DNA of 64,000 bases from Escherichia coli (GTDB lineage Bacteria; Pseudomonadota; Gammaproteobacteria; Enterobacterales; Enterobacteriaceae), in the NCBI RefSeq assembly GCF_044324875.1, contig NZ_CP172185.1. One strand, written 5' to 3'. Position 1 is the first letter of the stretch; every line of letters begins with the position of its first letter. A program made the translations under genes and the position numbers. Positions 8,678-51,910 of the stretch are shown in pieces. Under the pieces are notes generated by a model that was not told the origin of the DNA, made no database searches, and saw nothing but the letters and a program-made list of their open reading frames with translations.

Positions 8678-8749
8678 TGATAATTGCCGGATGTCTGACA
8701 TCCGGCAATTAAACAGATTTAGAGTGTTGGCAAAGTGTGCTTTGTTCAT

Positions 8750-24551: not shown

Positions 24552-25709
24552 TTATTGTTTCGATTCGGTGCTGGCGTTTTCCTGGCTGGAGGAAATTGCT
24601 CGTGCTTTGATACCCGGACGAATGCGTTGCAAACCGGAAACGATCACCCGATCGCCAGCCTGTAAGCCAGAGGTGACGACCCACTGGTCGCCGATGGCTT
24701 TGCTGGCTTCAATTTCACGTAGCTGCACGACATCGTCTTTATCCAGAATGAGCGCCGTTGCTTTACCCTGGGCGTTGTGGGTGACGCCTTCCTGCGGCAC
24801 CAGTAATACATTCTGGCGGCTACCTTCATCCACTAATGCCGTGACATACATGCCAGGCAGCAAGTCACCATTTGGGTTGGGGAAAATCGCCCGTAACGTC
24901 ACGGAGCCCGTGGTTTCATCCACCGTCGGGTCGGAGAATTTCAGCGTGCCGGTCTGGCTGTAACGTTTACCATTTTCCAGATTGAGCTGTACTGGCGTAC
25001 TGCCCTGAACCTGTTTGATTTGCCCACTGGCGACCTCTTCTTTCATACGCAAGAAATCCTGCACCGACTGCGTGAGATCGACATAAATCGGGTCCAGACG
25101 TTGTACGGTAACCAGCGAATCTGCCTGATTAGCGGTAACGAGTGCGCCGACGGTCACCGACGATTTCCCGCTGACGCCCGTAATCGGCGAGGTGACATTT
25201 GCGTATTGCAGGTTGATAGTCGCCTGTTCAACAGCCGCTTTGGCGACGGTGACATTGGCTTCTGCTTCATTCAACTGGGTGCGCGCGGTGTCGTAATCCT
25301 GACGGCTAACGTAGTTGGTCTTCAGCAACGATGCCTGGCGGTTAAAGGTGATGCGGGCATTGCTGGCGGTAGAGAGCGCTTTCGCCAGCGTGCCTTTGGC
25401 GGAGTTCAGCTCGGCCTGTAAAGGTGCAGGGTCAATCTGGTAAAGCGAATCGCCCTGGTTCACTTTATCGCCTTCGATAAAGTTGCGTTTAATGATAATA
25501 CCGCCCACCTGGGGACGTATCTCGGCAACTTCATAAGGAACGGTTCTACCGGGCAATTCGCTCAACACATTGACCGAACCGGGGGAGAGTGTGACGACAC
25601 CGACCTCAGGCGTCATGGCTGCGGCGTTTTCCGCCGATTTGTCATCGCAGGCGGTGAGCATCGCGCCGCAGAATAACAACGGTATTAACAGCTTTCTTCT
25701 TCTGTTCAT
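24552..25709 (-). CDS. mdtE: RND efflux membrane fusion (periplasmic adaptor) protein MdtE
   Basis: 385-aa ORF with lipoprotein signal (LLFCGAMLTAC); AcrA-like adaptor. Confidence 0.95.
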   Translation of the reverse strand: MNRRRKLLIPLLFCGAMLTACDDKSAENAAAMTPEVGVVTLSPGSVNVLSELPGRTVPYEVAEIRPQVGGIIIKRNFIEGDKVNQGDSLYQIDPAPLQAELNSAKGTLAKALSTASNARITFNRQASLLKTNYVSRQDYDTARTQLNEAEANVTVAKAAVEQATINLQYANVTSPITGVSGKSSVTVGALVTANQADSLVTVQRLDPIYVDLTQSVQDFLRMKEEVASGQIKQVQGSTPVQLNLENGKRYSQTGTLKFSDPTVDETTGSVTLRAIFPNPNGDLLPGMYVTALVDEGSRQNVLLVPQEGVTHNAQGKATALILDKDDVVQLREIEASKAIGDQWVVTSGLQAGDRVIVSGLQRIRPGIKARAISSSQENASTESKQ

Positions 25710-26047
25710 TTTAGTCCCTGAAAATTCTTGAGAAATAACGGTTCTTTAAATTGCGCGCGAGGAGAGATATGAGGGATTTACAGACCAGCGGCATAGTGGG
25801 GTTGTCAGCCAGTAAGGTGGGATACAGGCATAGTGATCGACATGGTGAGGTCAACGACAAAAAAAATGTTGCCGTTCTGCCAACAGTTCCTGCCAGCATT
25901 CGGGCAACGAAGGGTTCTACTGGTGGATACATATACCAGGGGAATAAAGTCGTTTTCGCCTCTCCTTTAGTAATCACCGGGGGTAATGAAATCAGCATCT
26001 GCATCCCTCGTCATGCCAGCCATCAATTTCAGTTGCTTATGTCCTGA

Positions 26048-26575
26048 CTAAAAATAAGATGTGATACCCAGGGTGACGATGTCGCTCATACGTCTTAGTT
26101 TCAGCTTGTACATAATGTTGAATTTCTGAATCTTTAATGTTTGTTGCGAAATATTGAGCGTCGACGTGATATTGCTTTCATTTTTATTTTTCAGAATCAG
26201 TTGCATAATTTTGAACTGATTATGTGAAAAACATAATTGTGAATTCTTATGGGGCAAGTGTTTACCATAAGTAATCTCAAGAAGATTTTTGATACTTTCT
26301 TTGCGGCTAACAAAATAAATAGGCGCTTTAGCTTTTAGTTTACTGATGTGATAAGGTGCCAAAACAATAATTCTCTCGGCATCTAATTTCTCCAGAAATT
26401 TAATCGCTTCTTCATCAAGGATATGATTGTGATAGGTATCAATGATAACCTTGAAGGGTTTATTGCCTACTTTTTTGATCTCTGACAGGGAATTGATTTT
26501 TATCATTTCGTGATTATCTTTCAACTGCCAAAAGCCCTGTAAAAGAAAAGAATCTTTCGTCATGAGAAAAATCAT
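26048..26575 (-). CDS. gadE: LuxR-family acid-resistance master regulator GadE
   Basis: ORF 26048..26653 trimmed to ATG 26575 (MIFLMTKDSFLLQGFWQLKD...), 175 aa. Confidence 0.93.
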   Translation of the reverse strand: MIFLMTKDSFLLQGFWQLKDNHEMIKINSLSEIKKVGNKPFKVIIDTYHNHILDEEAIKFLEKLDAERIIVLAPYHISKLKAKAPIYFVSRKESIKNLLEITYGKHLPHKNSQLCFSHNQFKIMQLILKNKNESNITSTLNISQQTLKIQKFNIMYKLKLRRMSDIVTLGITSYF

Positions 26576-26884
26576 AACTTGCTCCTTAGCCGTTATCGTT
26601 TCGAACATGTCATCCTTTTCATTATTTACATCCTTGTCCGAATCGTTGTTCAATATAGTAAACGCCTATAAGAACTTTGCCCTTCGTGAACTAATACGTC
26701 TATTAACACTAATCAATACTTCAGATTTATCCATCACGCACTCCATATATTGATCCTAAGTAAGATTCCTGGTTGTTATCAATTTGTAAATGGTAAACAA
26801 AAAGTTAACGTTTGCGGATTACTGCCCAAGAATAAGTTATCAATAACCAGTTTGTGATCTCTGAAGAATATTACTAAAGTTAAA

Positions 26885-26956
26885 ATGTAATCCGATTTAA
26901 ATATCGAGTCTCCTTGTTTCGACTTAAGCTGGCAATTGGATTGCCAGCTTTCTTTT
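26885..26956 (+). ncRNA. Candidate antisense sRNA in the gadE leader (ArrS/GadF-like); 5' end uncertain
   Basis: plus-strand hairpin agctggcaattggattgccagct followed by ttctttt at 26927..26956 would terminate a transcript antisense to the long gadE 5' UTR; ArrS is reported at such a position in K-12. Confidence 0.35.
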
Positions 26957-27373
26957 AACGCATTGAAATTACCTGAGTAAATAACGCATTCATGTCTTCA
27001 GGTTTTTATATAGCGTCTGGAGACACGGATATTTATGCAATGTAATCAACGCCTGTTGCAAAAAAATGAACCCGGATTACTTATTTAACCGCCCATAGCA
27101 TCAACGCTTACGGAACTCTTTGTTCACTTTCCCACAGCACTTTTAAAACATTAAACCTGACTACGGAAAATATCAGCCATGATAATGTTTGAAATGGCTA
27201 ATTTGCCATGGAATGAAAAAAATTAGATGAAATTCAGTAGGTTGAAATAATCATCAGCAGGTAATTATTTCAATGATAGTGCGCAATTGATCTACAACGC
27301 TGTGTAGCGGAGAGAGTATTAATCGGATCATAGTCACATCAAGTGACTATGATCCGGGTGACAACAGGAATAA

Positions 27374-27946
27374 TTATTGCTGCTTAACGAACAAACTGGC
27401 GAAGCTGAACAGGCTGGCGGCGCTAAATATCAGTTCAATACCCACCAGTGTGGAAACCAAAGTTACAGACACCATCGGCGTTGCACCAAGGAATATCCAT
27501 GCAATGACGATATCCAGCACACCAATAACGAGCTGTAGCCAGCTGCCTTTCATTGAACGCTGACGATACCAACTCATCAGGCGAATAACCCCTGCAACAC
27601 AGAACAAACCGGCAATAAATGCCGCAATGGCAAAAATGCCCAGCTCCGGTGCGCGGATGAAGAAATAGCCGATCAATAAATAGGCGACTGCGACGAGGAA
27701 ACCGGATAATACCGGCCAGAAATTATGACTGCGGTTGCTGAATAATCCAACAATAAGCGCAACGCCCGAGCAGATTAATAATGCACCCACTACCGTGCTT
27801 AAAATATCGCCAGAGACGAACGGGAAACTGATACACAGCAACCCGACGATAAACAGTAGCACGGCAATAAACTGGATTGCTCTGCGATGCTTTTTCAGCA
27901 TCTCCAGATCAAACTTCAAAATTGTTGCCTTATCTATATATAACAT
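27374..27946 (-). CDS. hdeD: Acid-resistance inner membrane protein HdeD
   Basis: 190-aa ORF, multi-TM protein; divergent from hdeA. Confidence 0.93.
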   Translation of the reverse strand: MLYIDKATILKFDLEMLKKHRRAIQFIAVLLFIVGLLCISFPFVSGDILSTVVGALLICSGVALIVGLFSNRSHNFWPVLSGFLVAVAYLLIGYFFIRAPELGIFAIAAFIAGLFCVAGVIRLMSWYRQRSMKGSWLQLVIGVLDIVIAWIFLGATPMVSVTLVSTLVGIELIFSAASLFSFASLFVKQQ

Positions 27947-28200
27947 AGAACCACCCTATAAAATTAAGAAGAAAATCCCCTGCTATCAATCTATGCCAAA
28001 AACGCGTCTAAGAATGCAGTCGATTTAATAAAAATTTCCTAATTACAGTATCTGATGCATCTGTAACTCATTGTATTGAAATAAAAATATCTGATTTTGA
28101 TATTTTCCATCAACATGACATATACAGAAAACCAGGTTATAACCTCAGTGTCGAAATTGATTCGTGACGGCTCTTTCACTTTATAGTTGAGGATATTACG

Positions 28201-28533
28201 ATGAAAAAAGTATTAGGCGTTATTCTTGGTGGTCTGCTTCTTCTGCCAGTTGTGAGCAATGCAGCGGATGCGCAAAAAGCAGCTGATAACAAAAAACCGG
28301 TCAACTCCTGGACCTGTGAAGATTTCCTGGCTGTGGACGAATCCTTCCAGCCAACTGCAGTTGGTTTTGCTGAAGCGCTGAACAACAAAGATAAACCAGA
28401 AGATGCGGTTTTAGATGTTCAGGGTATTGCAACCGTAACCCCAGCTATCGTTCAGGCTTGTACTCAGGATAAACAAGCCAACTTTAAAGATAAAGTTAAA
28501 GGCGAATGGGACAAAATTAAGAAAGATATGTAA
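28201..28533 (+). CDS. hdeA: Periplasmic acid-stress chaperone HdeA
   Basis: 110-aa ORF with signal peptide (MKKVLGVILGGLLLLPVVSNA); recognised as HdeA. Confidence 0.95.
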   Translation: MKKVLGVILGGLLLLPVVSNAADAQKAADNKKPVNSWTCEDFLAVDESFQPTAVGFAEALNNKDKPEDAVLDVQGIATVTPAIVQACTQDKQANFKDKVKGEWDKIKKDM

Positions 28534-28648
28534 TTCCGGGAATGCGTTACATCGTACTTCCTTGCATATTGAACAGGCCGGAATATCTTCTTTAAAAGCA
28601 GCTATTCCTCCTGTTTGTATATAATCTCTATATTGAATGGGTTACAAA

Positions 28649-28975
28649 ATGAACATTTCATCTCTCCGTAAAGCGTTTATTTTTATGGGCGCTGTAGCGG
28701 CTTTGTCACTGGTGAACGCACAATCTGCGCTGGCAGCCAATGAATCCGCTAAAGATATGACCTGCCAGGAATTTATTGATCTGAATCCAAAAGCAATGAC
28801 ACCGGTTGCATGGTGGATGCTGCATGAAGAGACAGTATATAAAGGTGGCGATACCGTTACTTTAAATGAAACCGATCTCACTCAAATTCCTAAAGTGATC
28901 GAATACTGCAAGAAAAACCCGCAGAAAAATTTGTATACCTTCAAAAATCAAGCATCTAATGACTTGCCGAATTAA
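28649..28975 (+). CDS. hdeB: Periplasmic acid-stress chaperone HdeB
   Basis: ORF 28637..28975 trimmed to ATG 28649 (MNISSLRKAFIFMGAVAALSL...), 108 aa. Confidence 0.93.
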   Translation: MNISSLRKAFIFMGAVAALSLVNAQSALAANESAKDMTCQEFIDLNPKAMTPVAWWMLHEETVYKGGDTVTLNETDLTQIPKVIEYCKKNPQKNLYTFKNQASNDLPN

Positions 28976-28991
28976 TGAGGTACAAGTAAAA

Positions 28992-29036
28992 AGGAGTAGC
29001 AAGTTGAGCCATCTTGCTGCTCCTTTTTGCTTTTTT
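28992..29036 (+). terminator. Intrinsic terminator/attenuator between hdeB and yhiD
   Basis: hairpin aggagtagcaag...cttgctgctcct followed by ttttgcttttttat, ending 3 bp before the yhiD start. Confidence 0.6.
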
Positions 29037-29038
29037 AT

Positions 29039-29686
29039 ATGACAGCAGAATTTATTATACGTCTTATACTCGCAGCAATTGCCTGTGGCGCTATTGGCAT
29101 GGAAAGGCAAATGCGCGGCAAAGGAGCAGGGTTACGCACACATGTATTAATTGGCATGGGAAGCGCCCTGTTTATGATTGTTTCGAAATATGGTTTTGCT
29201 GACGTGCTGTCTTTAAATCACGTCGGACTGGACCCCAGCCGTATTGCAGCTCAGGTGGTGACGGGCGTCGGGTTTATCGGCGCAGGTAACATTCTCGTTC
29301 GTAACCAAAATATTGTAGGTCTGACGACAGCAGCGGATATCTGGGTGACCGCCGCCATTGGTATGGTTATTGGTAGCGGTATGTACGAACTGGGCATTTA
29401 TGGTTCAGTGATGACCTTGCTGGTGCTGGAAGTCTTCCATCAATTAACCTTCCGCCTGATGAACAAAAATTACCATTTACAGCTGACATTAGTGAACGGT
29501 AATACGGTATCAATGCTCGACTGGTTTAAGCAGCAAAAAATAAAAACGGATTTAGTTTCGTTGCAGGAAAGTGAAGATCATGAAGTGGTCGCCATTGATA
29601 TCCAGCTTCATGCCACAACGTCGATAGAAGATCTGTTGCGATTATTAAAAGGTATGGCAGGGGTGAAAGGCGTTTCAATTAGCTAA
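29039..29686 (+). CDS. yhiD: MgtC-family inner membrane protein YhiD
   Basis: ORF 29027..29686 trimmed to ATG 29039 (MTAEFIIRLILAAIACGAIGMERQ...), 215 aa. Confidence 0.92.
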   Translation: MTAEFIIRLILAAIACGAIGMERQMRGKGAGLRTHVLIGMGSALFMIVSKYGFADVLSLNHVGLDPSRIAAQVVTGVGFIGAGNILVRNQNIVGLTTAADIWVTAAIGMVIGSGMYELGIYGSVMTLLVLEVFHQLTFRLMNKNYHLQLTLVNGNTVSMLDWFKQQKIKTDLVSLQESEDHEVVAIDIQLHATTSIEDLLRLLKGMAGVKGVSIS

Positions 29687-45960: not shown

Positions 45961-46108
45961 CAATACTATTAGCCAGTGGCTAACATTGCAAGAATTAGCG
46001 ATTTCTTCAGCTGGCGGAGGGAGCACTTCGGTATACATGGCAGTGAAAGAGGATTTATATACTTTCACCGGATTATCGCCGTACTAAGCCTTGTCCGAAT
46101 CCGGATGT

Positions 46109-46195
46109 AAAAAAACCGACTTCGCGTCGGTTTTTTTACTGTTCAGCCCTGAGTTGGTGGCTCTGGCTGGAGTGAGAATGCCATCATCTAACTTT
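46109..46195 (-). ncRNA. agrA: AgrA-like sRNA (dinQ antitoxin repeat); 5' end approximate
   Basis: second near-identical repeat unit with the same terminator hairpin and the ctctggctggagtgaga block; dinQ-proximal copy. Confidence 0.55.
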
Positions 46196-51878: not shown

Positions 51879-51910
51879 AAAGCAGGGTAGCGTTATCGCT
51901 ACCCTGCTTT
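51879..51910. terminator. Bidirectional intrinsic terminator between rsmJ and dtpB
   Basis: perfect hairpin aaagcagggtagcg ttat cgctaccctgcttt in the convergent gap. Confidence 0.7.

Follow-up and report, generated by a model that had tools for sequence, protein, structure and literature searches.

A stem-loop at the mapped 3' end of the Escherichia coli hdeD mRNA and its probable place in Rho-dependent termination

Between hdeD and gadE, in the acid fitness island of Escherichia coli, lies a perfect inverted repeat, and the question that it raises is whether it works as DNA or as RNA, and for which of the two genes. The initial annotation, made on a 64,000-nucleotide stretch of E. coli DNA (RefSeq assembly GCF_044324875.1, contig NZ_CP172185.1; hereafter the window), had offered two kinds of answer, i.e., a protein operator or distal gadE promoter element, or a hairpin at the hdeD 3' end that stabilizes the RNA. 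The island is inverted in the window relative to K-12, and the strain is not a K-12 strain; identity to K-12 is 95.7% over 27200–27480. Positions are those of the window unless K-12 coordinates are named, and the features under discussion are collected in Table 1.

Table 1 Features of the hdeD–gadE locus in window coordinates
Feature	Position	Strand	Basis and remarks
mdtE	24552–25709	−	ORF list; name from RefSeq
gadE	26048–26575	−	ORF list; name from RefSeq; ATG at 26575
gadE distal transcription start T3	27141	−	−566 from the gadE ATG; literature as cited in PMC3708157, converted by arithmetic
C-rich, G-poor, weakly conserved spacer; candidate Rho loading (rut)/termination zone	27169–27323	−	Composition and identity
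Bicyclomycin-sensitive (Rho) region, best-scoring coordinate	27208	−	K-12 3657733, PMC7815308 Supplementary file 2; 800-nt windows, coarse
Steady-state hdeD mRNA 3' end	27320	−	K-12 MG1655 3657621; Term-seq (PMC7815308) and TRS (PMC10687069)
Stem-loop	27324–27356	−	In hdeD-sense direction: 5' arm 27356–27343, loop 27342–27338, 3' arm 27337–27324
hdeD CDS (190 aa; stop codon included in span)	27374–27946	−	ORF list; homologous loci in RefSeq are acid-resistance protein HdeD
hdeA	28201–28533	+	ORF list; followed by hdeB (+)

Geometry and copy number of the inverted repeat

The inverted repeat ggatcatagtcac-atcaa-gtgactatgatcc is present at 27325–27355 with the perfect 13-bp arms and 5-nt spacer first described, and a repeat search adds one further pair, giving 14-nt arms that are 100% complementary around the same spacer (Table 1). 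This fourteenth, outermost pair differs among strains, the C-G pair being replaced within E. coli by U-A or by a mismatch, and the conserved unit is therefore the 13-bp core. The stem begins 18 nt past the hdeD stop codon on the minus strand, and relative to the gadE ATG the hairpin occupies −781 to −749. With G-C in 6 of its 14 pairs the stem is AU-rich; the energy of the stem-loop is about −25 kcal/mol, an RNA fold of the 111-nt context gives −35.6 kcal/mol (z = −5.0), and the opposite strand is about as stable. The repeat is real and far above chance: in 200 first-order Markov simulations of the 64-kb window, searched for perfect inverted repeats with arms of at least 13 and loops of 3–10, the expectation was 0.005 repeats per window, and none of the simulations produced arms of at least 14.

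Three further perfect hairpins with 14-bp arms occur in the window, at 8681–8711, 46107–46139 and 51879–51910, where 0.005 are expected by chance. The one at 46107–46139, flanked by A7...T7, resembles an intrinsic terminator that works in both directions, and its core has a related copy at 45875–45901.

Copy number was determined with a 49-nt query (blastn, word size 11, E ≤ 10) in 5426 complete E. coli genomes, each locus being counted on both strands since the palindrome matches itself. Exactly one locus per genome was found in 5412 of the 5426, and the conservation among strains on which the initial annotation had made its reading depend is thereby established. No plasmid copy occurs among the 5412 genomes with a match. 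The 49 nt are identical to the window in 3528 genomes, K-12 and O157:H7 among them, and a further 1175 carry exactly a second allele that is typical of B2/ExPEC strains, which brings the genomes holding one of two exact 49-mers to 4703. The search for other copies of the half-site that had been proposed with the annotation returned none elsewhere in E. coli genomes, and within the window, at up to 2 mismatches, it gave one extra match, which is within chance expectation.

RefSeq places no feature under the hairpin, and Rfam gives no match at 27290–27400 (E ≤ 1). The only Rfam family above its gathering score in 25500–29500 is the sRNA ES205, at 25859–25930 on the minus strand (105 bits versus a gathering score of 86); it lies just 3' of gadE, and we tentatively take it to be GadF, the sRNA of the gadE 3' UTR.

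A single copy per genome in 5412 genomes eliminates the hairpin as a REP, BIME, MITE or other repeat-family element. It shares with REP/BIME sequences the position of an extragenic palindrome 3' of a gene and the ability to stall 3' exonucleases, but the many dispersed copies with a consensus that characterize those elements are absent, and its sequence is unrelated to the REP consensus. In one strain, Z1324SEC0014 (locus L004, 3292–4215), IS903B is inserted at the hdeD 3' end and has displaced the hairpin by about 1 kb from hdeD; in this naturally occurring mutant, the 3' end of hdeD has to arise in some other way.

The mapped hdeD 3' end and its probable origin

The M63 sheet of the Term-seq data of Adams et al. 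2021 (PMC7815308, Supplementary file 1) holds a 3' end at MG1655 3657621 (+), with 1150 reads, between the flanks CCCCGGTTGTCACCCGGATCATAGTCACTTGATGTGACTATGATCCGATTA and ATACTCTCTC. An independent K-12 dataset, TRS (PMC10687069, Supplementary Data 2), has a peak at 3657617–3657627 with its dominant position at the same 3657621, a signal of 0.9355 and the label 'Primary hdeD'. The hdeD start, 3656995, was derived from an internal 3' end at 3657126 that is listed 131 nt from the start codon (PMC7815308), and conversion by arithmetic from hdeD = 3656995–3657567 places the stem at 3657585–3657617, so that in both datasets the RNA ends 4 nt past the last paired base. Because the two maps coincide there, the hairpin shows where the hdeD mRNA ends in vivo. 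The Term-seq table labels this end 'orphan' for no other reason than that its 'primary' class stops at 50 nt beyond the stop codon and the end is found at 54 nt (PMC7815308). In the curated Term-seq file the end belongs to M63 only, with low reads, and is absent from the LB data; the Term-seq entries covered for this region hold no antisense-strand 3' end at the hairpin (PMC7815308).

The TERMITe supplements make no mention of hdeD, the CyaR/RprA paper covers the hdeD 5' UTR only, and no data for hdeD from exonuclease or rho mutants were found in the literature. The comparison with hdeD 3'-end data that had been suggested for this repeat gives a simple hdeD 3' end in both maps, and by the refuting condition set with the annotation the simple reading applies.

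No U-tract follows the stem on either strand (hdeD-sense tail AUUAAUACUCUCUCC, other-strand tail GGGUGACAACAGG), and a consensus terminator scan made no call at the hairpin, while the same scan called the arrS terminator at 26926–26950 (+); the initial view that this is not a canonical intrinsic terminator agrees with both results. In place of the ~5 or more U in 8 nt that follow the G+C-rich stem of a canonical terminator, there are 3 U in the first 8 nt of the hdeD tail, and 5 of its first 6 bases are A or U. An A-tract before the stem is likewise absent, both in the window (upstream flank UGUUGUCACC) and in the nine lineages compared. The tails of these nine lineages, AUUAAUAC, GUUAAUAC, UAUAACAC, GCUAACAC, UAUAAUAC and CGUCAUAC, hold no U-tract, and the last of them, from E. 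albertii, has 2 U in its first 8 bases.

What follows the hairpin instead is RNA of biased composition. The ratio of C to G in 78-nt windows climbs to 2.29 between 27286 and 27169 and then reverses to an excess of G over C, and the 110 nt on the 3' side of the stem have a ratio of 2.0, the 110 nt on its 5' side one of about 1.1. All nine lineages have a ratio of 1.5–3.1 in the 110 nt after the hairpin, at a sequence identity there of only 0.4–0.6.

A region sensitive to the Rho inhibitor bicyclomycin (BCM) has been published for this stretch of the chromosome. Upstream and downstream reads are 101 and 28 without BCM and 251 and 475 with it, which corresponds to a Rho score of 6.83 (p = 2e-20; PMC7815308, Supplementary file 2), and the reported coordinate lies 112 nt past the hdeD 3' end. 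The signal is confounded, however, since the 800-nt downstream window takes in gadE T3 (~3657800, ~67 nt past the reported coordinate) and other gadE promoters, and the effect could in part be derepression of H-NS-silenced gadE promoters and not read-through from hdeD. No paper that deals with both bicyclomycin and hdeD was found.

An anatomy of this kind has been described by Dar and Sorek 2018 (PMC6061677) for Rho-dependent E. coli transcripts, which have precise steady-state 3' ends right after stable stem-loops, without U-tracts and followed by C-over-G enrichment; termination takes place further downstream, and PNPase and RNase II trim the RNA back to the stem. The hdeD hairpin agrees with this class in that a stable stem-loop stands right before a precise and dominant 3' end, in that a U-rich tail and an upstream A-tract are both missing, and in the rut-like C-over-G bias just downstream; the published bicyclomycin-sensitive region lies beyond it, in a window confounded by the gadE promoters. 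It differs in its stem, which at 14 bp is unusually long and perfect, and in that Rho dependence and trimming are putative for hdeD.

The reading that we favor, with moderate confidence, is that the hairpin is the 3'-terminal protective stem-loop of a Rho-terminated hdeD transcript. The palindrome would act as RNA, as a stem-loop of 13–14 bp at the end of the hdeD message that sets its steady-state 3' end. With no U-tract to stop it, RNA polymerase would pass the hairpin; Rho would then load on the untranslated, C-rich and G-poor RNA just downstream and stop transcription diffusely within ~100–150 nt, upstream of gadE P3; and the 3'-to-5' exonucleases PNPase and RNase II would trim the tail until they are blocked by the hairpin, leaving a precise, protected end. 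A side effect of such an arrangement would be to keep GadE-activated hdeD transcription out of gadE. Rho is the probable terminating factor, with a single, confounded BCM data point in its favor, and for exonuclease trimming at hdeD we infer from the general model that it may apply here.

The main rival, which we regard as possible but rather unlikely, is a non-canonical intrinsic (Rho-independent) terminator, in which a stable hairpin and a weak A/U-rich RNA:DNA hybrid (AUUAAUAC) would release RNA polymerase, the end at +4 being the product of release, slightly nibbled back. In favor of this rival, the stem is perfect and very stable, and in vivo the RNA ends sharply, with little signal beyond (TRS signal 0.9355); against it, the end lies 4 nt from the stem, whereas intrinsic terminators usually release ~7–9 nt after it. 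An A/U-rich start of the tail fits this rival; the U count, on the other hand, is low, and a U-tract is absent and unselected in every lineage, with 2 U in E. albertii, and the hairpin fails the consensus terminator scan. Although 3'-end maps do not tell termination from trimming, and the gadE promoter blurs what the BCM data say about Rho, the conserved C-over-G tract and the BCM-sensitive region just downstream speak against intrinsic termination, and exactly this anatomy has been reported for Rho-dependent transcripts (PMC6061677).

The arrS terminator, 370 bp away, allows a direct comparison with the canonical type. In both cases a hairpin ends a transcription unit with a sharp 3' end near the stem, but the hdeD tail has its 3 U in 8 nt where arrS has TCTTTT, and compared with canonical terminators in general the hdeD end is closer to the stem and the stem is AU-rich.

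The terminator of the arrS antisense sRNA is a perfect 11-bp hairpin that precedes the TCTTTT, and it is 100% conserved across Escherichia; the RNA 3' end lies at ~26956, and the corresponding Term-seq 3' end, K-12 3657985 on the minus strand, is very abundant. Read in the gadE sense (~26922 (−)), the same hairpin coincides with a mapped 3' end within the long 5' UTR of the gadE T3 transcript (K-12 3658019/3658020, TRS label "5' UTR gadE"). With mapped 3' ends on both strands the arrS hairpin is a two-way 3'-end former, and it may end gadE T3 transcripts prematurely.

Conservation of pairing and the remaining readings

Within E. coli, the arms of the 13-bp core are unchanged in seven of eight sampled alleles, and in the eighth, from strain E7-1N7, a single C-to-U change yields a U.G wobble; the loop varies from UUGAU to AUUAA. 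A scan of species-representative genomes with HdeD covered E. whittamii, E. albertii, two unnamed Escherichia lineages, two divergent 'E. coli' and Kluyvera cryocrescens, and the hairpin is found at the same place in all Escherichia recovered. The lower stem, GGAU...AUCC in E. coli, is GCCU...AGGC in E. whittamii, E. albertii, E1V33 and E69, core positions 2–3 being swapped symmetrically in these four lineages (G-C to C-G and A-U to C-G). In an alignment of 14 Escherichia sequences, 95.4% of the pair cells are paired versus 88.9% in shuffles, none of 500 of which reaches the observed value, and sliding the partner by 1–3 columns leaves 21–45% paired. Three pairs are doubly changed and seven are invariant; the two inner swaps are common to related lineages and may be a single event. 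As judged from this alignment, the symmetric swaps indicate that it is the pairing that is conserved across Escherichia and not the sequence of the half-site.

Wobble pairs were also considered as an indicator of the strand on which the hairpin acts. The wobbles of E69 (G.U and U.G) and E7-1N7 (U.G) pair in the hdeD sense only, and the A.C mismatch that the group of E. whittamii, E1V33 and E. albertii has on that strand would be a G.U wobble on the opposite one; with two lineages favoring hdeD-sense and three related ones antisense, the result is mixed, and a strand call on this basis was dropped.

Across the genus, identity is 0.74 in the bin that holds the hairpin versus 0.45 and 0.39 in the flanking bins, and the strongly conserved gadE control blocks start only at ~27210, in the P3/T3 region. 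Within the hairpin, the upper stem CATAGTCAC/GTGACTATG shows good conservation of sequence. In Kluyvera cryocrescens an 11-bp hairpin, unrelated in sequence and without a U-tract, directly follows hdeD; a gadE-like gene of the LuxR family (locus L012, 2567–3154) is there convergent with hdeD, and the gap of 55 nt between the two holds the hairpin. Its presence despite the convergent gene ties the hairpin to the end of hdeD and not to a position upstream of gadE.

The arrangement of the genes differs between the two. In Escherichia, unlike Kluyvera, gadE lies 798 bp downstream of hdeD in the same direction, and the convergent order in Kluyvera makes the long 'sensory integration' region upstream of gadE an Escherichia-specific arrangement.

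The conservation of the upper stem bears on the proposal that the hairpin is the site of an RNA-binding protein or RNase (e.g., of the ProQ type), or a conditional switch for read-through from hdeD into gadE, which we hold to be improbable. The upper 9 pairs are conserved in sequence beyond what pairing needs, but stems evolve slowly for structural reasons alone, and no paper was found that links the hdeD 3' UTR to ProQ or another binder. Read-through increases 6.8-fold with BCM (PMC7815308), and expression of hdeD and gadE is tightly correlated in single cells (rho = 0.78; PMC9769608); activation of hdeD by GadE, however, already accounts for that correlation, and hdeD–gadE co-transcripts are hypothetical.

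The hairpin does lie between hdeD and gadE P3 and separates the two. On a reading to which we give little weight, hairpin and Rho zone together would form a conditional insulator, and weakened Rho, or a protein on the conserved upper stem CAUAGUCAC/GUGACUAUG, would let transcripts from the GadE-activated hdeD promoter extend into gadE. If so, a read-through arm would be added to the positive feedback of GadE, with a contribution to the bistable, heterogeneous phenotype of acid resistance.

A role as DNA operator, i.e., as a duplex palindrome bound by a dimeric transcription factor for distant control of gadE P3 or of hdeD, is very unlikely. The perfect dyad with its short, 5-bp spacer of variable sequence is indeed that of many operators of dimeric transcription factors, and the sequence of the upper stem is well conserved, but two half-site positions change symmetrically (GGAT/ATCC to GCCT/AGGC), which contact with a protein is not expected to tolerate, the half-site is not conserved in orthologous loci, and neither a second half-site in E. 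coli genomes nor significant extra copies in the window exist. The palindrome is located inside the 798-bp hdeD–gadE region and forms part of the 'P3' fragment of reporter and gel-shift work, which anaerobic activation requires and which, as a whole, is bound in vitro by ArcA-P (PMC3708157); it lies, however, 183–215 bp upstream of T3, outside the conserved P3 block and amid the least conserved DNA of the region, and it overlaps or adjoins no promoter. No binding data were found for it, and among the ChIP-exo sites covered for hdeD and gadE, those of GadE, GadW and GadX are at the hdeD promoter and near gadE P1, with none at the palindrome. Furthermore, the GATC sites of the arms are lost in divergent species, and the palindrome coincides precisely with an RNA 3' end. 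The initial proposal of an operator or distal gadE promoter element found no support, given the unconserved half-site, the distance from T3 and the location of the ChIP-exo sites covered; its alternative, a stabilizing RNA hairpin at the end of the hdeD message, has good support from the two maps 4 nt past the stem and from the compensatory changes.

Two more specific identities were discarded. The CRP arrangement is TGTGA..TCACA, and the arms of the hdeD repeat, TCAC..GTGA, have the reverse of that order; a CRP-like or other known operator was dropped on sequence. A Dam methylation switch, suggested by one GATC per arm, was rejected: E. albertii, E. whittamii, E1V33 and E69 have kept the hairpin but neither GATC.

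Template switching in quasi-palindromes can yield paired 'compensatory' changes without selection, and the two doubly changed inner pairs, shared as they are by related lineages, may be a single event of this sort; but that the palindrome is kept perfect in this way, with no selected function and an incidental RNA 3' end, is very unlikely for a hairpin that forms an island of conservation (0.74 versus 0.45 and 0.39), persists in 5412 of 5426 genomes and throughout the genus, has an unrelated counterpart at the same place in Kluyvera, and keeps wobbles and mismatches that show its arms not to be homogenised.

Consequences for the hdeD–gadE region

The feature is most likely of an ordinary, catalogued kind and not a new regulator-binding site for gadE. 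The 3' end itself, in two public tables, and the class of hairpin were already known; the conservation pattern and the assignment to that class are new here. The locus probably provides a clean, single-copy, non-REP example of the hairpins without U-tract that end Rho-terminated mRNAs, and one for which natural compensatory variants exist. Its practical value lies mainly in annotation and experimental design, and no new question on the control of acid resistance is opened. The first ~50 bp of the 798-bp hdeD–gadE region, which is treated as gadE promoter in the literature, belong to the hdeD transcript, so that any reporter starting from −798 contains the hdeD 3' hairpin and, upstream of P3, a probable Rho zone. 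Beyond the hairpin, the first transcription unit to follow is that of gadE T3.

Further along the spacer, an 80-bp block at 27210–27131 (−) is 90–100% identical in all sampled Escherichia species, E. albertii included; it coincides with the gadE P3 promoter and the T3 start, and no other non-coding block in the distal half of the hdeD–gadE intergenic region is as well conserved. The segment 27200–27480 is unusually polymorphic within E. coli, unlike the HdeD and GadE proteins, which are nearly invariant: about 1300 of 5410 genomes (B2-type) are only 80–90% identical to the window over these 281 bp, and the B2 allele is 89% identical. Such polymorphism suggests that allelic lineages of long standing, or recombination, have shaped the hdeD 3' region and the spacer.

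K-12-like hdeD–gadE DNA also occurs under another species name. The 8.6-kb contig NZ_JAUFQN010000010.1 (L010), deposited as Flavobacterium paronense CECT 8460, carries such E. coli DNA with single-base indels and is almost certainly contamination of that assembly.
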